Source: Candidatus Nomurabacteria bacterium (GTDB lineage Bacteria > Patescibacteriota > Dojkabacteria > SC72 > JAHDCA01). From it: a stretch of 64,000 nucleotides of DNA. Shown here piece after piece: positions 1-23,086 of the stretch (its first letter is position 1; each line of letters starts with the position of its first letter). The stretch lies in NCBI GenBank assembly GCA_020632395.1, contig JACKFQ010000002.1, forward strand, positions 83,662 to 147,661, in the 5' to 3' direction. Made by a program: the position numbers and the translations under genes. The notes below the pieces were generated by a model. The model did not search any database. It saw only the letters and a list, made by a program, of their open reading frames with translations, and had not been told where the DNA came from.

Positions 1-122
1 CGTGGACCCCAATGATGATCGGTCGAACGCTCCGTATCAAATCCAAGTACCTCCGAGCCAGAACCTAGCAATCCAGCAGAGTATTTGAGTCCATGAAATT
101 CTGTTTCGATGAGAGTTTTCAC
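1..122 (-). CDS. N-terminal fragment of a protein running off the left edge; possible Pol-beta-superfamily nucleotidyltransferase (GS-x7-DTE motif)
   Basis: Minus-strand frame reads VKTLIETEFHGLKYSAGLLGSGSEVLGFDTERSTDHHWGP... from a GTG at 122 to beyond position 1. By eye this stretch is about 48% GC, versus under 30% for the adjacent array. Not in the ORF track because it is partial. Confidence 0.3.
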   Translation of the reverse strand, partial: MKTLIETEFHGLKYSAGLLGSGSEVLGFDTERSTDHHWGP

Positions 123-203
123 GACCTCTTTGTAAAATTGTTCACACAGTTGTTATCTTGGAATAAACTTTGTCAAATTTGAAGTATTTAGTTTTTTACT
201 AAC

Positions 204-641
204 CTATTCGAACTTTTTGTAGAACGTTTTTTGTAGATAGCAGGTAATTGCCATTCGACTTGCATCAAAATGAGGTGTCGGGAGATTTTTTGGATCTACC
301 CATAGCCACTCATCGCATTTTTCTGGTTCCATTATTTTCAGCTCACCGGAAAAGTCCTGGGCAAGTAAGGCGATCGAAACGTAGTGTAACCCTTCTTTGT
401 TGTAAGTTTCTAAGTTGTTGGTTACGGCTACCACTCGTGGATTTTTAATGTCCAAGTCGGTTTCTTCTTTAATTTCTCTAATCGCGCCATCTTCAAATGT
501 TTCGCCTGGCTCTAGATGCCCGCCTGGAATGGAATAGTATGGAGCATGGCTATTTTTTCTTTTGCCAATAAGGACTTTTCCGTCGTGATTTACAAGAATC
601 ACGCCTAATCCAACTCTTGGTATGTTTTTTTGTTTCGTCAT
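204..641 (-). CDS. NUDIX hydrolase
   Basis: Nudix box GGHLEPGETFEDGAIREIKEETDL (GX5EX7REUXEEXGU) in the 145 aa ORF. Confidence 0.85.
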   Translation of the reverse strand: MTKQKNIPRVGLGVILVNHDGKVLIGKRKNSHAPYYSIPGGHLEPGETFEDGAIREIKEETDLDIKNPRVVAVTNNLETYNKEGLHYVSIALLAQDFSGELKIMEPEKCDEWLWVDPKNLPTPHFDASRMAITCYLQKTFYKKFE

Positions 642-670
642 ATTTTAGAAAGGTTAGTTTAAAAATCTCG

Positions 671-701
671 CATAACGTTTCCCGATGAAGCGAAGTTTTG
701 C
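671..701. repeat. Cassette-junction conserved block 1, copy A (cATAACGTTtcccgATgaagCGAAGTTTTGC)
   Basis: One of seven related 30-35 bp elements, one in each intergenic region of the 0.2-5.6 kb array. They share the palindromic core ATAACGTTA followed by ATAT and GAAGTTTTGC. Confidence 0.7.
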
Positions 702-764
702 AAATTCCTTATGTAAATTAATATTTATTGGCAAAATTTGGACGGAGAAAACAATAAATTAATT

Positions 765-1142
765 TTAGCTCCGTAACTTTACTATAGTGTCCTTGAGTTT
801 CTTCATCAAATCGTCTTTATCGGTATATTCTATAAATTTATCAGTCACGATTTTTAGTGAGCTAGATGTTCTTTGTCCTGAATGATAAATACAAATAATT
901 GGACACTTTGACAAATCAGCCCACCCAAGCTCGATTCCCAGGCCTGTCGATGGATAAGAAACCTCCGCGATCATTAAGTCGCATGTCTTTATTATATCTC
1001 GCGTTACAAAATCACTAGCGTCTTCATAGGCTTCGTGCGGCAAGATAATTTCATGCTCCGTGTTCAATAAGCTTGAACGAATTGGTTCATATAGCTCTTT
1101 TTCAAAATCGTAATCGGTAGAGTGTCCAATATATATTTTCAT
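765..1142 (-). CDS. Nucleoside 2-deoxyribosyltransferase-like protein (flavodoxin-like fold)
   Basis: Motif STGLGIELGWA resembles the NDT catalytic-Glu motif (G-T-x-x-E-x-G-x-A). Size is 125 aa. Confidence 0.55.
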   Translation of the reverse strand: MKIYIGHSTDYDFEKELYEPIRSSLLNTEHEIILPHEAYEDASDFVTRDIIKTCDLMIAEVSYPSTGLGIELGWADLSKCPIICIYHSGQRTSSSLKIVTDKFIEYTDKDDLMKKLKDTIVKLRS

Positions 1143-1228
1143 AGAAGAGGGGATAAGATTAATTTATTGTTTTATGTAGTCGCATACACATTGTTAGATG
1201 ATGTGACATAATGGATATGGAGTCATTT

Positions 1229-1260
1229 CATATAACGTTAGCGTGTATGCAAAGTATGCC
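1229..1260. repeat. Cassette-junction block 1, copy B (catATAACGTTAGCGTGTATGCaaagtatgcc)
   Basis: Shares the ATATAACGTTAG core. Its stem portion GTGTATGC has an inverted partner GCATACAC at 1182-1189, followed by attGTTAGAT. Confidence 0.65.
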
Positions 1261-1401
1261 TAAGAACGGAACTGATATTATCTTCTCAAGATTTAAGCGA
1301 ATAGGCAAATTGGGGCGAGCCATTTTTAGAAATCAGTTGCACTGGACACGACAAAATGGCTCACAGCATAGCTGCTGTTGTGTGATGTAAAAAGAAAAGC
1401 G

Positions 1402-1794
1402 CTATATGCTCTTCATCTGAATCATTTTTGCCATTGCTATATATAAAACAAGACCTACCGAATAAATGATAATATAGGGGGCAATGGCAATCCAACGGTT
1501 AATGTAAAACAGATCAACATTTTGAAATGATCTTTCTATTGTCGAACCTACTACAAAAAAACTAAGAGCAACTAATGTATTGAGTAGAATTGTAAAATAC
1601 TGCCTACTGTCATCAACATGTATTAACTTTGTAATGAAGTAAGCTATTACGATATAAGCAATGGCAAAAATGCTCGTAATTGGCAATTGCAAAATCCATC
1701 TGCCATCTGAAGGAACATTTAATAACACATAAATTGTGTTTGCCACAAGAATTATCAAGAAACTAATGATAACTGAATTTGCAATTGTTTTCAT
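1402..1794 (-). CDS. Small integral membrane protein (about 4 TM helices), function unknown
   Basis: Hydrophobic segments fill most of the 130 aa ORF. Confidence 0.5.
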   Translation of the reverse strand: MKTIANSVIISFLIILVANTIYVLLNVPSDGRWILQLPITSIFAIAYIVIAYFITKLIHVDDSRQYFTILLNTLVALSFFVVGSTIERSFQNVDLFYINRWIAIAPYIIIYSVGLVLYIAMAKMIQMKSI

Positions 1795-1846
1795 ATGGGT
1801 TTGTTATTAAATAGTAGTAGCATTTTACCATTTCGTTTTGTTTCGT

Positions 1847-1874
1847 ACAACGTTATGGATATGCGGAGTTTTTC
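1847..1874. repeat. Cassette-junction block 1, copy C (acAACGTTATGGATATgCGgAGTTTTTC)
   Basis: Core AACGTTAT plus GGATAT and AGTTTTTC, matching the other junction copies. Confidence 0.6.
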
Positions 1875-1929
1875 TGGAACGTACTGGAGTGAAAGCGCTA
1901 GTGTACCCTGGAGTTTGTCCTTCAACCCG

Positions 1930-2448
1930 TTACTTCTCATCAAGATAAGAATTAATTGCTTCATCAATAATCGTAATATCTTTGATTTTTTTACTTTCAG
2001 GATTTTTACTAAATTCTTTAATCCATTCAATACAGTCATCAATATTTTCAACAACTAAATCAGAAAAGGTCAATAGAAAAGGATGAATCCAATCATCGAT
2101 TTTTGTACCATCAAAAACAATATTTGATCTTCTATGATGTGTATCTTTTGGAATTATTGAAATTACAGGTCTTTTGAAATATTTTGCAATTACCATTTCT
2201 TGAGCAGTTCCAGCTCCAAGTTTCTTCTTAGAATCAACGATGATAATATCTGCTGTTTTTACGAGATTAGAATCATGACCAACTAATTGCAAAGGTTTAG
2301 TTTCATCTTTCCATGCATCACCATCTGTAATTTCAACATTGGGAATTTTTGAAAGTTTTTCTTTGTATTCAACTTTCCAATCTTTCCAATTTTCTCTAAC
2401 ATCATCTCCTTTTGGTATTGAACCTAATAAAAAATTTTTAAGCGTCAT
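1930..2448 (-). CDS. Nucleoside 2-deoxyribosyltransferase-like protein, second paralog
   Basis: Motif KLGAGTAQEMVIAKY resembles the NDT active-site region. Size is 172 aa. The ORF-track entry 1791..2054 is an overlapping shadow ORF. Confidence 0.5.
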   Translation of the reverse strand: MTLKNFLLGSIPKGDDVRENWKDWKVEYKEKLSKIPNVEITDGDAWKDETKPLQLVGHDSNLVKTADIIIVDSKKKLGAGTAQEMVIAKYFKRPVISIIPKDTHHRRSNIVFDGTKIDDWIHPFLLTFSDLVVENIDDCIEWIKEFSKNPESKKIKDITIIDEAINSYLDEK

Positions 2449-2510
2449 ATATTTTGTGAAAATCCTTTATAAATTAAATCTTATTCTTCTAATGGTTGTA
2501 GGGTAAATTT

Positions 2511-2543
2511 CATTTAACGTTCCTGCGTATGCGATGTTTTTGC
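2511..2543. repeat. Cassette-junction block 1, copy D (catTTAACGTTcctgcgTATgCGatgTTTTTGC)
   Basis: Degenerate copy of the junction core. Confidence 0.55.
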
Positions 2544-2550
2544 GACCAAC

Positions 2551-2645
2551 GGGAGCAAAAATATGGGTGAAGCCCGAGCCGAGGGCTGAACCGTATATCC
2601 CTTGTTATACGCCCCGACGACAGAAAGGAGGAGAGCGCAGCGTGG
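2551..2645. repeat. Cassette-junction blocks 2-3, copy D (about 95 bp)
   Basis: About 90% identical by eye to 4401-4494. Contains the CGTATAtcccttgtTATACG hairpin and GGAGGAGAGCGCAGCGTGG. Confidence 0.75.
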
Positions 2646-2774
2646 CTTGAGTTCAAAAAATATTTTTCGTTCTGATTCATCAGAGAGGCTTTCGGTTATT
2701 TCTTATAAATTTGATTTTTTCGTTTTTCTTTTTCCAAGAGGGGTTAGGGATGAATTGGAAAAAATAAAAACTCC

Positions 2775-3440
2775 TTATTCTTTTTCATTAATAACAAACC
2801 ATTCTCCTTCACTAATCACTTCAATTTTGTTGTCAATAATCTTTAATGCAGAATCATCATCAAGTGCATAAATTGTTTTGCTTATTTCTTGACCAACTTT
2901 TTCTATATTTTCTCTTCTCATTTTTTTAAACCATTCAGAATTCAAATGTGGCAAGAAATAAAAATCTACAAAGTTTAAACCTTTTAATTCTTCAGTTTCA
3001 AGCATATCTTCTTCATAAATCACTTGGGATAATTTCAATGCTAAATCAGGATTAGTAACCATACTTCCAGCAGAAACACCAACATAAACTTTATCTTTAA
3101 ATAAATCAGACAACATTTCAGATAAACCTGATTTATTTAGCCATCTCATTAGATGATAAGTATTTCCTCCTTCAAAAAACAAAACATCAGCTCTTTCTAA
3201 ACTCGGTTTCCATATTTTTTCATCAACAGCTGAAATATCAGTAATTTCAATTGATTTGAAATTTTGTTTTTTCAAATTCACTAAATCAGTAATTAGCCAA
3301 TCTTTATCGCCCGATTCAACATTGCTTGCAGTAGGAATAAAAACAACTGTTGTTTCTTCTGGTTTCTTTCCAGTTAATTCAAACAAAGCATTGGCAATTG
3401 AATTGTTTGTTAGTCCGCTTGATGTTAATAGTAGTTTCAT
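2775..3440 (-). CDS. Peptidase E / S51-family dipeptidase
   Basis: LLLTSSG ... FIPTAS ... FFEGGNTYHLMRWL ... VYVGVSAGS match S51 peptidase motifs. Size is 221 aa. Confidence 0.8.
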   Translation of the reverse strand: MKLLLTSSGLTNNSIANALFELTGKKPEETTVVFIPTASNVESGDKDWLITDLVNLKKQNFKSIEITDISAVDEKIWKPSLERADVLFFEGGNTYHLMRWLNKSGLSEMLSDLFKDKVYVGVSAGSMVTNPDLALKLSQVIYEEDMLETEELKGLNFVDFYFLPHLNSEWFKKMRRENIEKVGQEISKTIYALDDDSALKIIDNKIEVISEGEWFVINEKE

Positions 3441-3604
3441 AATAGTAGGAGTAAAGAATTAAAATTTATAAATCAATCGTTTTCGGAACGAAGTGGAGAA
3501 AACACATTATTATCCCCCTCTTTTATTTTAGAAAAAATCAAATTTATTCCCTTTTTAGAAAGCCTATTTTCATTATTCATCTTAGAAAAATATTTTTTGA
3601 ATTT

Positions 3605-3638
3605 CACATAACGTATCCGAATATGAGAAGTTTTTTGC
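3605..3638. repeat. Cassette-junction block 1, copy E (cacATAACGTATCCGaATATgaGAAGTTTTTTGC)
   Basis: Junction core. A possible partner arm CGGATAatcagtGTTATAC lies at 3785-3803, just before the stop codon of the upstream gene. Confidence 0.6.
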
Positions 3639-3813
3639 CGGATTTCCCAGTATTTATGTACAGTTTAGCACATTCGTTCGACATTTGAATATGCTTTAAT
3701 TGATCGCCATTCGTAGGCAAAAAATTTGGATGGAATGAAAAAGACAAGTCCTTAAATTATTCAAAAGTGTCTTTTTCATGGAACCGGATAATCAGTGTTA
3801 TACGAGAGTTGAA

Positions 3814-4341
3814 TTAAGCGGCTCCTAGCAGTTTCAACATTTTCTCAGACCAATCAGTATTGCCCTTTGTTATTTCCTCCTTGAAAAATTTTATCATCAG
3901 CTGTTTTGGCTCATCCGATATTGCACAGTGCTTAATTTCTGGCCAAAATTCACGATACCATAATCCGATATTATCATGTTTTAAGTCGCAAGCACCGCCA
4001 TTTGGATCAGGTTCAATAAACAAAATCCTGTCTACGTGATTTGTAACAGAAGCTCCCAAGCATTGAATACAAGGTTCAAGCGTACTGTATAGAGAGACAA
4101 TTTTTGAATTATCCTTACGAACTTCCGCCAGCTCTTTGCCGTACTTAATTATTAGAGAATTTTCGGCATGATTCACAAAGGATTTTTGTTTATTGATTTC
4201 GTTGCCAGCGACGCCAAGCGTTTTATTATTGATAGCCAAAACAGCCCCCACAGGATAGTTCCCAAGCTTGAAAGTTTCTCTAGCAATACTGATGGCCGAC
4301 TCCAAGCATTGTTTATCGAATTGTGTTATTTCTTGCACCAT
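3814..4341 (-). CDS. CMP/dCMP-type (cytidine/deoxycytidylate family) zinc deaminase
   Basis: HAE (VNHAENSL) and PCxxC (LEPCIQCLG) zinc-binding motifs. Size is 175 aa. Confidence 0.75.
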   Translation of the reverse strand: MVQEITQFDKQCLESAISIARETFKLGNYPVGAVLAINNKTLGVAGNEINKQKSFVNHAENSLIIKYGKELAEVRKDNSKIVSLYSTLEPCIQCLGASVTNHVDRILFIEPDPNGGACDLKHDNIGLWYREFWPEIKHCAISDEPKQLMIKFFKEEITKGNTDWSEKMLKLLGAA

Positions 4342-4360
4342 ACAGAGCTTAATTCAATTT

Positions 4361-4391
4361 CATATAACGTTAGGGATATACGAAGTTTTGC
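4361..4391. repeat. Cassette-junction block 1, copy F (catATAACGTTAGGGATATACGAAGTTTTGC), the best-preserved copy
   Basis: ATATAAC-GTTA-GGGATATACG is the reverse complement of CGTATATCCC-TT-GTTATAC at 4442-4460, with a 2-nt versus 4-nt bulge. Confidence 0.75.
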
Positions 4392-4400
4392 GGAGTGAAA

Positions 4401-4494
4401 CGGAGCAAAATTTGGGTGAGGGGCGAGCCGAGCACCGAACCGTATATCCCTTGTTATACGCCCCGACGACCAAAGGGAGGAGAGCGCAGCGTGG
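4401..4494. repeat. Cassette-junction blocks 2-3, copy F
   Basis: Near-identical to 2551-2645. Contains the right arm of the attC-like inverted repeat. Confidence 0.75.
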
Positions 4495-4516
4495 TTCGTG
4501 GCGATAGCCGAGAAAG

Positions 4517-4553
4517 TCAGAAGTCGGCTTTTTTCTTTTTTATGAGCGCACAC
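4517..4553. repeat. Left arm of an imperfect inverted repeat flanking the methyltransferase gene
   Basis: TCAGAAGTCGGCTTTT ... TGAGCGCACAC are the reverse complements of AAAAGCCGACTTCTGA and GTGTGCGCTCA at 5425-5464. This arm abuts the stop codon. Confidence 0.7.
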
Positions 4554-5381
4554 CTATTTTTTCTTAACAATTATCATCATATGTCCACTTAAATCAACAA
4601 TTATTGGATCGGTGCAAATTTTGTTATGAATGGCTAACCAATTTTTCCATGCTTTTGGATATTTCTTTGCAAATTTATTTGTCGCTTCAGGATTTACATT
4701 TAAGCCTTCAAGACCCACTTTCTCAAGAATTTGCACATCTTTTTTGGTAAAAATGGACTCAAGCTCTGATGAGGTAAAATAATGACAATAGCCATCTCCT
4801 CTCCATTTATAATCTTCACCATCAGATACCAGTCCCTCGAAATGCTTTTTGTAAACTACTTCTTGTGGCCAACCAAGAGGAGTGGCTAGGAGTACCCCAT
4901 ACTTGCTCATTACTGAAACAAAAATTAAAGCACCCTTTTTTGCGACTCTAATTAATTCGTCAATTGCTTTTAGTCTTTCGGATTCTGGGCTGACATGAGA
5001 GAGTGGTCCGCCCAAGCACAATACTACATCAAAAGAATTATTTTCAAATTCAGATAAGTCTGTAATAGACCCCTCTACAATATCTTTAATTTTTGTTTGT
5101 ACCTTTGCTTTTTTAATTTGTTCCCTAGCAAGTTCTAGGTGTTCTGTGACCAAATCCAGAAGAACAACATCATATCCCATTTTTGCCAATTCAATTGAGT
5201 ATCTTCCGGGACCACCACCTGCGTCAAGAATTACTCCAGATTTTGGAAGATATTTTTTTAGGAATTTTATTGATGTGTCAAATTCTATTTTATGAAAGGG
5301 GTCTTGTGCTAATCTATTCCATTCATAAAGAGCATCTTTTTTGTAATTCTTTTTGGTTAGTTTTGTAGTCTTGTTTGCCAT
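4554..5381 (-). CDS. Class I SAM-dependent methyltransferase
   Basis: Motif I VILDAGGGPGRYSIELAK with the acidic residue at VVLLDL. Size is 275 aa. Confidence 0.8.
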   Translation of the reverse strand: MANKTTKLTKKNYKKDALYEWNRLAQDPFHKIEFDTSIKFLKKYLPKSGVILDAGGGPGRYSIELAKMGYDVVLLDLVTEHLELAREQIKKAKVQTKIKDIVEGSITDLSEFENNSFDVVLCLGGPLSHVSPESERLKAIDELIRVAKKGALIFVSVMSKYGVLLATPLGWPQEVVYKKHFEGLVSDGEDYKWRGDGYCHYFTSSELESIFTKKDVQILEKVGLEGLNVNPEATNKFAKKYPKAWKNWLAIHNKICTDPIIVDLSGHMMIIVKKK

Positions 5382-5424
5382 AATAATATTGTAAAGTATA
5401 AATGATTTATAATTGTTGTGTTAA

Positions 5425-5464
5425 GTGTGCGCTCATTCCTTCTTAATTAAAAGCCGACTTCTGA
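5425..5464. repeat. Right arm of the inverted repeat flanking the methyltransferase gene
   Basis: GTGTGCGCTCA ... AAAAGCCGACTTCTGA. A 16-nt and an 11-nt perfect reverse-complement match to 4517-4553, with different spacers. Confidence 0.7.
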
Positions 5465-5466
5465 TT

Positions 5467-5500
5467 GCGTATAACTCGTTACTATACGAAGTGTTTTCGC
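5467..5500. repeat. Cassette-junction block 1, copy G (attI-equivalent position next to the recombinase)
   Basis: gcGTATAACtcGTTActATACGAAGTgTTTTcGC lies between the first array gene and the divergent tyrosine recombinase gene. Confidence 0.6.
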
Positions 5501-5590
5501 AATTTGTACAGAAATGCATATACTATGCGAACAGTTTCTGACAAAATAACTCTAAACTAATTATCAATATCATCTCATAAAAAACAACAA

Positions 5591-6403
5591 ATGAAAAAAG
5601 AAATTACAGCAACTGTACGAGAATTAAAAATTCGCAATTACAGTTCTAAAACAATAAAAAGCTACACTAGTGGAATTCAAAAATACTTTCGGTTCAAGAA
5701 AAATAATTTCCAACAGCTAGATATCCACAATATACAAAACTTTTTACTCTCCTGTTCAGATAAAGGACTGTCTGCTAAGACAAGAGATCTATATTTGAAT
5801 TCAATTAAATTCTATTACCACAACGTCATTAAAACTTCAAAAAAGGTAGACATCAAATCTGCAAAACAAAATAAAAGTCTCCCTGTTATATTGAATCGCA
5901 AGGAAATCACAAAGTTGAGTGAAGTCATAAATAACCCCAAACACAAATTAATCATCTTGCTAGCATATGGAGCAGGATTAAGAGTTAGCGAAGTCGTCAA
6001 CTTAAAGGTCAAGGACGTAGATATTGATAATCTCACACTCCATATTAAGAAAGCCAAGGGGAAAAAGGATAGAATTACTATTATCCCAGAAAAAATTAAG
6101 GATGATCTGAAATTGATAATTAATTCAAGAGATCAAAACGAATATGTTTTTACAAGTGAACGAGGAGGAAATCTTACAACTCGTACTGCACAAAAGATTT
6201 TTACTAATGCTCTGAAAAAAGCAGGAATTAAGAAGGAGACGACATTTCATTCACTACGCCATAGCTTTGCAACTCACTTACTAGAAAACGGAGTTGATAT
6301 CAGATATGTTCAAGAATTACTTGGTCATCAAAATATTAGAACCACACAAAGATATACTCAAGTTACAAATCCGAAACTAAAAAACATTAAAAGTCCCCTC
6401 TGA
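5591..6403 (+). CDS. Tyrosine site-specific recombinase (XerC/XerD/phage-integrase family, 270 aa)
   Basis: Box I LRVSEV, box II HSLRHSFAT, catalytic Tyr in LGHQNIRTTQRYTQV. About 91 residues separate the box I Arg from the box II His, matching the Xer spacing, so no IntI-type insertion. Confidence 0.9.
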   Translation: MKKEITATVRELKIRNYSSKTIKSYTSGIQKYFRFKKNNFQQLDIHNIQNFLLSCSDKGLSAKTRDLYLNSIKFYYHNVIKTSKKVDIKSAKQNKSLPVILNRKEITKLSEVINNPKHKLIILLAYGAGLRVSEVVNLKVKDVDIDNLTLHIKKAKGKKDRITIIPEKIKDDLKLIINSRDQNEYVFTSERGGNLTTRTAQKIFTNALKKAGIKKETTFHSLRHSFATHLLENGVDIRYVQELLGHQNIRTTQRYTQVTNPKLKNIKSPL

Positions 6404-6561
6404 AAAGAAACATTTTCTAAGACTCGAACCCAATTATTAGAGTTATATAGGCATTCTTGCTTATGGAGTGATATTTACCTTACTTTGCGTCATTTCTACG
6501 AACTGCAAGATTAGTCCGCTGTATAAGGCTTTTAAAATGCTGAAGAAAAAGCTGACCTAAC

Positions 6562-6711
6562 TGGTCGGGGAGACAGGACCATCTCGGCAAACATGCCTCG
6601 ATGTATGATGCAGAATAATTCTACTGCATCATAGGTCCCTGCAGTAGGTTCAAGTCCAAATACACCATCCATACAGAGTAAACGACCACCTAACGGTGGT
6701 CATTTACTCTG
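6562..6711. repeat. 150 bp module at the 3' end of tRNA-Pro(CGG); duplicated at 22862-23012
   Basis: Nearly identical to the copy at 22862-23012. Begins with GTCGGGGAGACAGGAC, a 16-nt direct repeat of the tRNA 3' end. Contains the hairpins TGATGCAG/CTGCATCA and GACCACC-TAAC-GGTGGTC. Confidence 0.8.
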
Positions 6712-6785
6712 TCGGGGAGACAGGACTTGAACCTGCGACCTCTGCAACCCGAATGCAGCGTTCTAGCCATCTGAACTACTCCCCG
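6712..6785 (-). tRNA. tRNA-Pro, anticodon CGG
   Basis: Manual cloverleaf: acceptor CGGGGAG/CTCCCCG, D-stem GTTC/GAAC, anticodon arm CTGCA-TTCGGGT-TGCAG, T-arm GCAGG-TTCAAGT-CCTGT, discriminator A. Length 74 nt with no encoded CCA. Confidence 0.85.
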
Positions 6786-6875
6786 AGTACAATATTTCTC
6801 TTAGGTATATCTGGCAAATGAGCCTTATAATAACAACTTTACGAACGTAGTACTATATACGAATTCCACTATCCA

Positions 6876-7208
6876 TCAAGACTTATTTGTTTTTTGTGCC
6901 ACTTTTTCGGGTAGAAGGTTATGGATCGCAAGAAATGGCAATAATGCAAATGACCCTACGAATAGAACCGCTAAAGCAAAAGGATATCTTCGCTTGCTCT
7001 TTTCACTATTTAGGATCCAAAAACAAGATATTGTCGAGAAAACACCTATATCAATGAACATAATGCGAGCGAAAGAGCTTTCCTCCAAAACGGATCTCAT
7101 CGGTATAAAATCGTTCATTAGTTGTGGGTCAAATATGGCATAGATGACCAACAATACCCATACGACGATGAATGTTATCCCTAGTCGTCTCTTCTCAGAT
7201 GAATTCAT
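6876..7208 (-). CDS. Small membrane protein (2-3 TM helices)
   Basis: Hydrophobic 110 aa ORF. Confidence 0.4.
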   Translation of the reverse strand: MNSSEKRRLGITFIVVWVLLVIYAIFDPQLMNDFIPMRSVLEESSFARIMFIDIGVFSTISCFWILNSEKSKRRYPFALAVLFVGSFALLPFLAIHNLLPEKVAQKTNKS

Positions 7209-22707: not shown

Positions 22708-22861
22708 ACTGATGATGTTTAGGTTAATTTGTTAATTATATTGATCTATAAATACTTTAGCGATGCTATATGAACTTTAGTTAGCCGCTTGATCCGGGCC
22801 TGCTATGCAGATCATTATCTGCGCACGATCTCCTTAGCAGCCCTTACGGACCGTCTATCGT

Positions 22862-23012
22862 CTGGTCGGGGAGACAGGACCATCTCGGCAAATATGCCTC
22901 GATGTATGATGCAGAATAATTCTACTGCATCATAGGTCCCTGCAGCAGGTTCAAGTCCAAATACACCATCCATACAAAGTAAACGACCACCTAACGGTGG
23001 TCATTTACTCTG
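22862..23012. repeat. 150 bp module at the 3' end of tRNA-Pro(GGG); second copy
   Basis: Near-identical to 6562-6711, including the 16-nt direct repeat of the tRNA 3' end and both hairpins. Confidence 0.8.
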
Positions 23013-23086
23013 TCGGGGAGACAGGACTTGAACCTGCGACCTCTTGCACCCCATGCAAGCGCTCTAGCCATCTGAACTACTCCCCG
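23013..23086 (-). tRNA. tRNA-Pro, anticodon GGG
   Basis: Identical to the 6712-6785 tRNA except in the anticodon arm: CTTGC-ATGGGGT-GCAAG here versus CTGCA-TTCGGGT-TGCAG there, and one D-stem base. Confidence 0.85.

Follow-up and report, generated by a model that had tools for sequence, protein, structure and literature searches.

The DNA analyzed here is a 64,000-nt stretch of a Candidatus Nomurabacteria bacterium (contig JACKFQ010000002.1; hereafter the window). Its left end is occupied by an array of seven unrelated open reading frames (ORFs), all on the − strand within positions 1-5474 (ORFs 204-5381), with hairpin sites between them, and by a tyrosine recombinase gene that diverges from the array. 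The element in question is a block of about 95 nt that occurs twice in this array. The features are listed below; bit scores are those of a covariance model (CM) built from the block family itself, and crossovers are predicted.

204-641, − strand: NUDIX ORF
668-764, + strand: junction after the 125-aa ORF (junction A), with a CGCATAACGTTTCCCGATGAAGCGAAGTTTTGC arm and 'relic A', assigned by reading the sequence
765-1142, − strand: 125-aa ORF, nucleoside-deoxyribosyltransferase-like
1229-1390, + strand: site after the 130-aa ORF (junction B), assigned by eye, running from CATATAAC to GTTGTGTGATGTA with a large side hairpin (GAGCCATTTT/AAAATGGCTC) and holding 'relic B'
1402-1794, − strand: ORF for a 130-aa small membrane protein
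1844-1923, + strand: weak candidate site after the 172-aa ORF (CM 11.9 bits, E 1.9), with the shared CGTACAACGTTATGGATATGCGGAGTTTTTC motif; crossover 1850|1851
1930-2448, − strand: 172-aa ORF
2511-2613, + strand: site of the S51-peptidase cassette, a three-way hairpin (CM 88 bits, E 1e-21); crossover 2517|2518
2518-3611, − strand: S51-peptidase cassette, with ORF 2775-3440 (Peptidase_S51)
2551-2645, + strand: block copy 1, forming the 3' end of the S51-peptidase cassette; composed of an inner-stem half (2551-2566), a side hairpin (2567-2591, with stem AGCCC/GGGCT and loop GAGCCGA at 2576-2582), the L arm CGTATATCCC (2592-2601), the R box GTTATAC (2604-2610) and the extension (2611-2645)
3605-3806, + strand: site of the deaminase cassette, 200 nt, of like architecture and other sequence (CM 24.6 bits, E 5.5e-4); crossover 3611|3612
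3814-4341, − strand: cytidine-deaminase-like ORF
4361-4462, + strand: site of the methyltransferase cassette (CM 112.5 bits), with an 11-bp L stem, a typical family member; crossover 4367|4368
4368-5474, − strand: methyltransferase cassette, with ORF 4554-5381 (S-adenosylmethionine methyltransferase)
4401-4494, + strand: block copy 2, forming the 3' end of the methyltransferase cassette; includes a side hairpin (4416-4440, with stem GGGGC/GCACC and loop GAGCCGA), the R box GTTATAC (4453-4459) and the extension (4460-4494)
5465-5500, + strand: attI-like duplex site, ATTGCGTATAAC-TCGTT-ACTATACGAAGTGTTTTCGC, to which the first cassette is predicted to be joined at 5474|5475
5591-6403, + strand: tyrosine recombinase, Xer/IntI-like, 270 aa (Pfam Phage_integrase and SAM_4)

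A first reading of the letters alone (the sequence-only reading) had reported nearly identical segments of about 95 bp at 2551-2645 and 4401-4494, and this repeat is real. A repeat search of the window recovered an ungapped direct repeat of 88 nt (2558-2645 versus 4407-4494, 89% identical), which reaches 2551/4401 once a single 1-nt gap is allowed; the global identity over the full 95 nt is 87.4%. The two copies also share position and orientation, as had been claimed, both lying 40 nt to the right of a shared junction motif (CATATAACGT/CATTTAACGT). With up to 3 mismatches allowed, a 34-nt core and a 19-nt distal part of the block each occurred twice in the window (shuffles expect 0), and no copies were found in the window outside the array. 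Several short-read (Logan) contigs break or start inside the block, as is expected for a repeat.

The + strand ORFs 2602-2871 and 4268-4507, which share the peptide YAPTT..RRAQRG and had been dismissed as spurious, are present and were again regarded as by-products of the repeat because, beyond the block, neither their reading frame nor their length is conserved. Other identities for the block were considered and rejected. ORFs on both of its strands are short and differ in frame and extent between the copies, which speaks against a coding role, and a Shine-Dalgarno-like GGAGG plus GTG over the block opens only frames of 2 to 30 codons of unconserved length. A tRNA fragment was discounted after a tRNA/tmRNA scan that gave only three ordinary tRNAs. 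A group IIC-attC intron or attC-targeting insertion was discarded as well, there being no group II intron match in Rfam and no reverse transcriptase among the Pfam results, and the 95-nt block being part of the site itself.

Hairpin sites and the mini-hairpin extension

In the block, the ORF-proximal arm of the attC-like hairpin is represented by half an inner stem and the L arm; a side hairpin, the R box and a 35-nt extension outside the hairpin complete it. The sequence-only reading, although correct about the repeat, had overlooked the roughly 35 nt that lie outside the hairpin site. All junctions share one layout. On the + strand each reads ...RYATAAC GTnnn (A/T)ATRCGAWGTTTT..., with a partner arm ending in TGTTRYRY further to the right; read on the coding strand this is R'' (GTATAAC)...R' (G|TTATRT), i.e. 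the layout of an attC site. The earlier reading of the junctions as integron attC-type sites was thus well founded, given their imperfect inverted repeats, RYYYAAC/GTTRRRY ends and single orientation, as well as the recombinase and attI-like site next to them. The L arm (AACTTCGTATA) also resembles a loxP arm, which may be coincidence.

The predicted crossovers (2517|2518, 3611|3612, 4367|4368 and 5474|5475, cutting RYYYAA|C on the + strand) place copy 1 wholly within the S51-peptidase cassette and copy 2 wholly within the methyltransferase cassette, in each case at the 3' end. Both cassettes are discrete units that recur in other genomes with a G|TT boundary. The S51-peptidase cassette (2561-3612) is 84% identical to a metagenome-assembled genome (MAG) of Shapirobacteria (L084; the loci compared with the window carry such L numbers), where the match stops at the crossover (3612), and the methyltransferase cassette (4449-5500) is 83% identical to an Uhrbacteria MAG (L011).

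A scan of the window with the covariance model detected four junctions; junctions A and B fell below its threshold. The 'relics' of the block that had been claimed at these two junctions (about 730-747 and 1303-1322, respectively) are real short matches to its inner stem and side-hairpin part. Junctions A and B are not decayed copies of the block; they belong, as distinct members, to a mixed set of sites. The R-box flank TGTTGTGTGATGTA of the site at 1229-1390 is of the type found in the sites of another locus, L114.

For the structure of the site, 59 copies of the block family from other genomes were aligned, and a model was tested in which the R stem, the 11-bp L stem, the A/T-rich inner stem and the side hairpin are combined. 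The long, A/T-rich outer stems were imposed and then tested by pair counts, as RNAalifold alone did not recover them. In the resulting three-way hairpin 92.9% of cells were paired and 15 pairs were changed on both sides, with a covariation of 0.178 compared with 0.060 for shuffled alignments and at most 0.064 when the partners were slid. The side-hairpin stem showed two-sided changes in 18-22 sequences, and its alleles (AGCCC/GGGCT, GGGGC/GCCCC, ATGGC/GCCAT and ATTGC/GCAAT) all surround an invariant GAGCCGA loop. The R and L stems are separated by an asymmetric 3x1 internal loop. In the window itself, the distal arm of the site at 2511-2613 pairs only imperfectly with the block arm. Leftward conservation of the 59 copies ends exactly at ...CCCTRAC G|TT, and the flank beyond G|TT is variable.

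In 58 of the 59 copies one column pair of the alignment (91/120) reads A.C on the coding strand, corresponding to G.T on the + strand, and the site of copy 2 folds better as + strand DNA (-21.9 kcal/mol) than as − strand DNA (-18.3 kcal/mol). The strand that folds is therefore likely to be the + strand, the complement of the ORFs, as in integrons.

NN-GNA-NN heptamers (GCGCAGC, GCGAAGC, GCGTAGC, ACGAAGT, GTGAAAC, CTGAAAG and CCGAAGG), framed by G/A and a short covarying outer stem (CAC/GTG, TTC/GAA, TGC/GCA, CGC/GCG and others), make up the extension and the variable segment that follows it, and also the hairpin apex and a unit (3479-3505) within the S51-peptidase cassette's 5' leader. Within the variable unit, 66 of the 120 long variants fit a paired 3-bp stem frame, compared with 28.8 in controls, with at least nine stem types represented; covarying variants such as GC-GCA-GC versus GT-GCA-AC were also seen. 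These GNA mini-hairpins and their G.T variants (GTGTAGC, GTGCAGT) are readable on the + strand only. DNA mini-hairpins of this type are extraordinarily stable, are poorly bound by SSB (the protein that coats single-stranded DNA) and are found at priming origins of single-stranded DNA (ssDNA) (PMC13037366). The heptamers GCGAAGC, GCGTAGC, GCGCAGC and CCGAAGG are shared with known ssDNA initiation sites (phage G4 origin, RSF1010 ssiA; PMC13037366), where they likewise stand on one strand beside a single-strand structure, whereas the units described here are framed by G/A and a short outer stem and come as 2-4 repeats per cassette, and a role in priming is putative. The unit in the S51 5' leader reads GTTTTC-GGAACGAAGTGGA-GAAAAC on the + strand, a copy of the site's apical stem together with a GNA mini-hairpin, and is kept in many loci.

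Recombinase, attI-like site and dif-like cores

When the 270-aa recombinase was compared with family models, its best and only above-cutoff NCBIfam match was 'XerA_Arch: site-specific tyrosine recombinase/integron integrase' (232.8, cutoff 220). The IntI model TIGR02249 failed (212.8 against a cutoff of 265) and was matched in two stretches. The best relative of solved structure was Vibrio cholerae IntIA (2a3v), to which residues 6-174 and 197-270 aligned (VchIntIA 6-178 and 244-317); P. abyssi XerA aligned with the protein end to end (1e-43). No second Xer-like gene was present in the window.

Relatives of the recombinase number more than 7,700, and many of them are 270 aa long, 62-85% identical and from distant phyla, often on contigs of 1-2 kb. 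These close relatives include proteins from Pacebacteria, WWE3, Omnitrophota, Cloacimonetes and Delongbacteria. At 12 loci an integrase homologue that also lacks the IntI-specific insertion (about 263-265 aa) lies within 8 kb of the block, the archaeal ones (37-42% identical) included. On two long contigs, L114 (770 kb) and L116 (768 kb), homologues of 72 and 65% identity, respectively, each stand beside a divergent ORF array. At L007 (2103-3918) the homologue is in two pieces about 1 kb apart, one matching residues 179-270 at 71% and the other residues 10-180 at 36%, which suggests a disrupted or chimeric integrase gene.

In the window, and likewise at five or more other loci (L051, L091, L029, L114 and L083 among them), an attI-like motif (ATTKCRYATAAC-TCGTT-WMTATACGAAGTGTTTTCG) is located 90-120 nt upstream of the integrase gene. 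The attI region of the window (5481-5524) also contains overlapping divergent sigma-70-like pairs, TGTACA-18-TATAGT on the − strand toward the cassettes and TTCGCA-17-TATACT on the + strand toward the recombinase gene. These recall a Pc/Pint arrangement; the promoter/terminator scan overall gave counts not above those of shuffles.

Read on the coding strand, the R''-side half of a site together with the beginning of the following cassette gives GGGGCGTATAA-CAAGGG-...-TTATGTGAAAT. Comparison with E. coli dif, GGTGCGCATAA-TGTATA-TTATGTTAAAT (checked in MG1655), matched the two core halves to the dif arms at 9/11 and 10/11 positions; this comparison rests on E. coli dif alone. A minimal duplex site, GGGGCGTATAA-CAAGGG-TTAAATGAAAT on the coding strand, was found at L054, L064, L065, L082, L089, L102 and about 15 other loci. 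Such minimal sites have the Xer/dif-type core of two arms of about 11 bp and a centre of 6-8 bp, and the recombinase is one without the additional domain. Three loci (L035, L057 and L077) resemble internal deletions of the hairpin (TAACGTTAGGG-TCCCTTGTTATAC), and one and the same 107-aa cassette has a full site in L051 and a minimal site in L082.

Occurrence in other genomes and surroundings in the window

A 20-mer from the block (R box plus extension) occurred in 107 stretches of a set of species-representative genomes. By record title, the bacterial ones included Kerfeld-, Uhr-, Magasanik-, Gracili-, Pacei-, Peri- and Saccharibacteria, SR1 and Omnitrophota, as well as Cloacimonadota, Atribacterota, Ignavibacteria, Chlorobium, Gammaproteobacteria and Bdellovibrionales; the archaeal titles were Woese-, Pace- and Nanoarchaeota (one a single-cell genome), Methanosarcinales, ANME-1 and Altarchaeum. 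The block was present at 90-96% identity in more than 100 other species-level bacterial and archaeal genomes, and at least 120 contigs from metagenomes contained a 23-mer taken from the extension only. An opposite-strand ORF ends 60-200 nt to the right of the block in nearly all genome loci. The R box stood 2-3 nt before the extension in 113 of 116 metagenome copies and varied in sequence (GTTATAC, GTTAAAC, GTTATGT, GTTAGCC). No plasmid in PLSDB carried the block, and only one contig in IMG/VR did: L240 (IMGVR_UViG_3300001335_000566, 71 kb), which has the 20-mer at 1305-1324 and a block 94.7% identical to copy 1.

With the covariance model, 200 sites were found in 100 other loci, often 4-7 per locus and on one strand. 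Ten sites, all on the same strand, lie among the ORFs upstream of the L114 recombinase, and L116 has one site. Two pairs of attC-like sites in L114 (5716-5999 and 6838-7107) lie only about 65 nt apart and flank the S51 cassette of that array; an 86-nt site is duplicated there (5716-5801 and 6838-6923) with identical right flanks. These close pairs may be ORF-less mini-cassettes or the result of duplication.

Copies in three foreign genomes match copy 1 at 95.8% identity, and other foreign copies match copy 2 at 94.7%. Altogether, 93 foreign copies resemble copy 1 more closely than the sister copy does; for copy 2 the number is 76. The two window copies also differ in which of the widespread alleles they have at the side-hairpin stem and at the first mini-hairpin. 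Judged by these comparisons, the copies appear to be alike because both cassettes carry tails of one cosmopolitan family, and not through local duplication or homogenization, the latter being excluded on the grounds that so many foreign copies are closer than the sister.

Many cassettes also have a non-coding frame in common. Unrelated ORFs (200-830 aa) lie in the frame represented in the window by 2646-2760 and 3459-3635 and found at loci L007-L113. The 5' leader of the S51-peptidase cassette (about 170 nt) is 75-88% identical in about 35 loci and the 3' tail (about 250 nt) likewise in about 50, the shared frame stopping about 20 nt before the start codon and about 19 nt after the stop codon. 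The non-coding arms of the S51-peptidase cassette (2646-2760 and 3515-3605) are conserved in inverted orientation, and the two arms of the frame share the inverted motifs TTCAAAAAATATTTTTC, GATAGGCTTTC, ATAAATTTGATTTTTTC and AGAGGGG. Selection for pairing of one arm with the other was considered and rejected, as identity was 0.68 within cassettes and 0.67 between them, showing no co-evolution; the arms around the ORFs are two separately conserved families with shared motifs. The methyltransferase ORF is flanked by an inverted repeat of its own (AGTCAGAAGTCGGCTTTT/AAAAGCCGACTTCTGA and TGAGCGCACAC/GTGTGCGCTCA, at 4508-4604 and 5409-5467), and a terminator-like GCCGA...TCGGC with a T-run follows directly after copy 2 on the + strand. 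Both features travel with the cassette, since both are also found in L011.

The array continues past the left end of the window. Logan contigs (L001-L006), found by exact-protein look-up, add a gene fragment, a 163-aa ORF, a 200-aa ORF followed by an attC-like arm, and a GNAT ORF before a DsbD gene on the opposite strand. On the other side, a tRNA-Pro gene follows the recombinase gene; the window, with a GC content of about 39%, also contains a bacterial RNase P RNA. Each of the two tRNA-Pro genes (CGG and GGG) is followed by an element of about 147 nt, 98% identical between the two places (6540-6726 and 22841-23027) and bounded by a duplicate of the tRNA 3' end; GTCGGGGAGACAGGAC occurs four times in the window. 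The element holds a T-arm/ACCA-like GGTTCAAGTCC...ACACCA and an 18-bp hairpin, and may be a small tRNA-Pro-targeted element or a linked RNA gene.

Interpretation and alternatives

The block is probably the ORF-proximal end of a recombination module that is present in two different cassettes belonging to an integron-like platform. In this mechanism the + strand of the window would be extruded as ssDNA, and the R and L stems would rebuild two inverted CGTATA(A/T) recombinase-binding arms, 6 nt apart, as a dif-like core. The recombinase could then swap a single strand at AA|C, in the way known from integrons (attC x attI/attC) and from CTXphi integration by XerCD, leading to excision or insertion of a cassette. 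The 35-nt extension, together with the variable unit and the apex, might serve as an accessory element on the same single strand that keeps SSB off the site, or nucleates or marks its folded form; alternatively, the extension might prime complementary-strand synthesis of the excised cassette.

The likeness to integrons extends to the divergent tyrosine recombinase, the adjacent attI-like site, the co-oriented unrelated ORFs with RYYYAAC / G|TTRRRY inverted repeats, the better folding of the ORF-complementary strand, the sharing of cassettes with G|TT boundaries and the occurrence of sites in both bacteria and archaea. Integron gene cassettes and the IntI/attI/attC system are reportedly organized in this manner (Mazel, 2006). 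Unlike integrons, the locus has a recombinase of only 270 aa that lacks the IntI insertion of about 40 aa and scores below the IntI family cutoff, an L stem without extrahelical bases in the family consensus, and a side hairpin with an invariant loop. It also differs in the conserved mini-hairpin extension of 35-60 nt outside the site, in having a plain 11-6-11 duplex at some junctions, and in cassettes that are not compact, many being set in a shared non-coding frame of about 150 nt at the 5' side and about 250 nt at the 3' side. We therefore read the locus as an Xer-like variant of the integron and not as a full member, because the IntI insertion is missing and the consensus L stem shows no extrahelical bases.

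Several observations weigh against an integron-like recombination module. Between its aligned parts the recombinase has 22 residues where VchIntIA has 65, so that the insertion is missing at the place of the IntI-specific domain, which the sequence-only reading had also overlooked; this additional domain near patch III is reportedly needed for attC recombination (Messier & Roy, 2001; MacDonald, 2006). In canonical attC sites, extrahelical L-box bases and the unpaired central spacer set the choice of strand. The 11-bp L stem has no extrahelical or bulged base in the family consensus, and the integron mechanism is therefore not simply transferable. The hairpin is also not obligatory, as about 20-25% of the family lack it and have the extension attached to a plain 11-6-11 duplex. 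The site of copy 1 folds only weakly as DNA (-18.7 kcal/mol, z -0.78), and covariance-model scores of family members are circular, which leaves the diverged, low-scoring sites alone as independent support. Most positions of the extension are invariant and give no covariation signal, and RNAalifold placed a coding-strand stem in it (columns 8-15 with 32-40) that includes G.U pairs. The taxon labels are MAG titles, and mobile DNA is easily mis-binned. Finally, recombination, the choice of strand and the role of the extension are all inferred.

Among other explanations, the locus could be an array of integrative mobile elements exploiting Xer (IMEX) at dif. The recombinase would then be the single Xer of the host (as XerA, XerS and XerH are), the attI-like site would be the chromosomal dif, and the cassettes would be small Xer-exploiting elements piling up there, as do CTXphi, TLC and VGJ in Vibrio. 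The XerA_Arch match, the only one above the NCBIfam cutoff, the full-length alignment with P. abyssi XerA, the core halves that match dif arms at 9/11 and 10/11, the existence of minimal 11-6-11 duplex sites and the lack of a second Xer-like gene all agree with it. In CTXphi, ssDNA integrates via XerCD through a hairpin in which two inverted dif-like halves come together, and the logic of integron attC sites is alike. As in CTXphi attP(+) and IMEX at dif, the recombinase here is of Xer type without the extra domain and the core arms are dif-like; as in the forked hairpin of CTXphi attP(+), two inverted halves about 60-90 nt apart rebuild a duplex core on one folded single strand. At the present locus, however, single-gene cassettes form long direct arrays beside the recombinase gene, in place of phage genomes at the terminus, and the attI-like site is conserved with that gene. 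The 62-85% identical recombinases in distant phyla, and those of 37-42% identity beside the same tails in archaeal loci, suggest horizontal spread together with the cassettes and not the vertical descent of a housekeeping gene. In addition, the best match in the PDB is an integron integrase, and no GC-skew switch was seen at the locus in data that are short and noisy. We consider a dif-based array unlikely, and note that it overlaps mechanistically with an integron-like platform.

Two further Xer-type systems offer partial parallels. The pdif modules of Acinetobacter plasmids are likewise single genes bounded by Xer-type sites, and in cer/psi accessory DNA adjoins the XerC-side core arm, which is the place of the extension here. 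In contrast to the sites described here, pdif sites are duplex sites of alternating orientation and cer/psi accessory DNA is a duplex of about 180 bp that binds ArgR/PepA/ArcA; neither has hairpins or GNA mini-hairpins.

The block might instead act as RNA, either as a structured 3' untranslated region of cassette mRNAs (affecting stability, termination or, via the anti-Shine-Dalgarno-like CCUCCUUUC, translation of the next cassette) or as a small antisense RNA from the + strand. The block is GC-rich amid an AT-rich spacer, and in the RNAalifold stem in the extension three C-to-U changes and one G-to-A change keep the pairing. The CTCCTCCTTTC stretch, which we take to resemble the 3' end of 16S rRNA, and the GCCGA...TCGGC hairpin with its T-run after copy 2 would fit as well. 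Rfam 15, on the other hand, gave no match to the block at the gathering score (whole window) or at E <= 10 (1-5600), and the best-supported pairs favor the + strand (G.T there, A.C on the coding strand). The linkage over 2-3 nt to an R box of variable sequence is better suited to DNA recombination, the terminator-like hairpin accompanies only the methyltransferase cassette (also in L011) with none after copy 1, and promoter and terminator counts did not exceed those of shuffles. A purely RNA-based explanation thus seems improbable, but roles in RNA and in DNA recombination are not mutually exclusive.

The sequence-only reading had described the junctions as differentially decayed copies of one ancestral site of about 130 bp, homogeneous in the manner of the Vibrio cholerae repeats (VCRs) of sedentary chromosomal integrons, a view by which the copies would be kept alike by concerted evolution within the array. 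Two near-identical site halves at equivalent places in one array, and the Logan contigs that break at the block, are in its favor, and VCRs, too, are attC sites of more than 100 nt whose variable region is branched and which, for some sites of one array, show high identity. VCRs, however, are homogeneous within an array and lineage-specific. Here the block is found in only two of the seven junctions, the remaining sites differ in sequence and length (80-200 nt), and the block is not specific to the array; the copies hold different widespread alleles and are nearer to 93 and 76 foreign copies than to each other. In this form the proposal is refuted, and we regard homogenization of this kind as very improbable. 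Still less credible is a miniature inverted-repeat transposable element (MITE) or generic dispersed repeat that fell by chance into two spacers, which the sequence-only reading had named as its own refutation: copy number across genomes is high and ORFs are flanked by inverted arms of about 100 nt, yet the block always forms the 3' tail of a cassette at a constant place relative to the ORF end and R box, has no copies off the array in the window and no target-site duplication, has boundaries that fall on G|TT crossovers, and the inverted arms do not co-evolve.

Returning to the integron-like platform, a bolder and decidedly tentative extension is that it represents an undescribed, cosmopolitan type of cassette platform between Xer/dif and integrons. 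Such a platform would have a Xer-like integrase free of the insertion, and its dif-like cores would be plain duplexes or be interrupted by a foldable hairpin. It would further comprise a mini-hairpin accessory element that resists SSB and works on the single strand (e.g. for second-strand priming of excised cassettes or for licensing folding), and a standard non-coding chassis for unrelated genes exchanged among the candidate phyla radiation (CPR), DPANN and other phyla. Literature searches, whose coverage was incomplete, turned up no account of platforms of this kind, with Xer-type integrases, in CPR/Patescibacteria/DPANN, whether as integrons or as integron-like systems, and no described integron counterpart of the mini-hairpin extension or of the shared non-coding cassette frame.

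Archaeal integrons have been described whose attCs are 95-100% identical to bacterial ones, with only six IntI genes in 75 genomes that have attC arrays (Ghaly et al., 2022; PMC9668308). Speculatively, this number would be explained in part if an integrase without the insertion had been missed. Tools for finding integrons demand the IntI domain, and platforms of the present type would therefore score as attC clusters without an integrase, which may bias estimates for CPR and DPANN; if the broader proposal is true, many such clusters in archaea and candidate phyla are complete platforms whose integrase is rejected by current tools. The identity of about 95% of block and flanks across domain labels points to recent or strongly constrained gene flow and makes the block a simple tag for tracing in metagenomes. 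An origin of integrons from Xer-like recombinases is assumed and, to our knowledge, undocumented. The locus is a possible intermediate, with an integron layout, attC-like hairpins, cassette sharing and dif-like cores beside a recombinase without a supposedly indispensable domain, and, if the proposal holds, it would provide a living model of the origin of integrons from Xer recombination.

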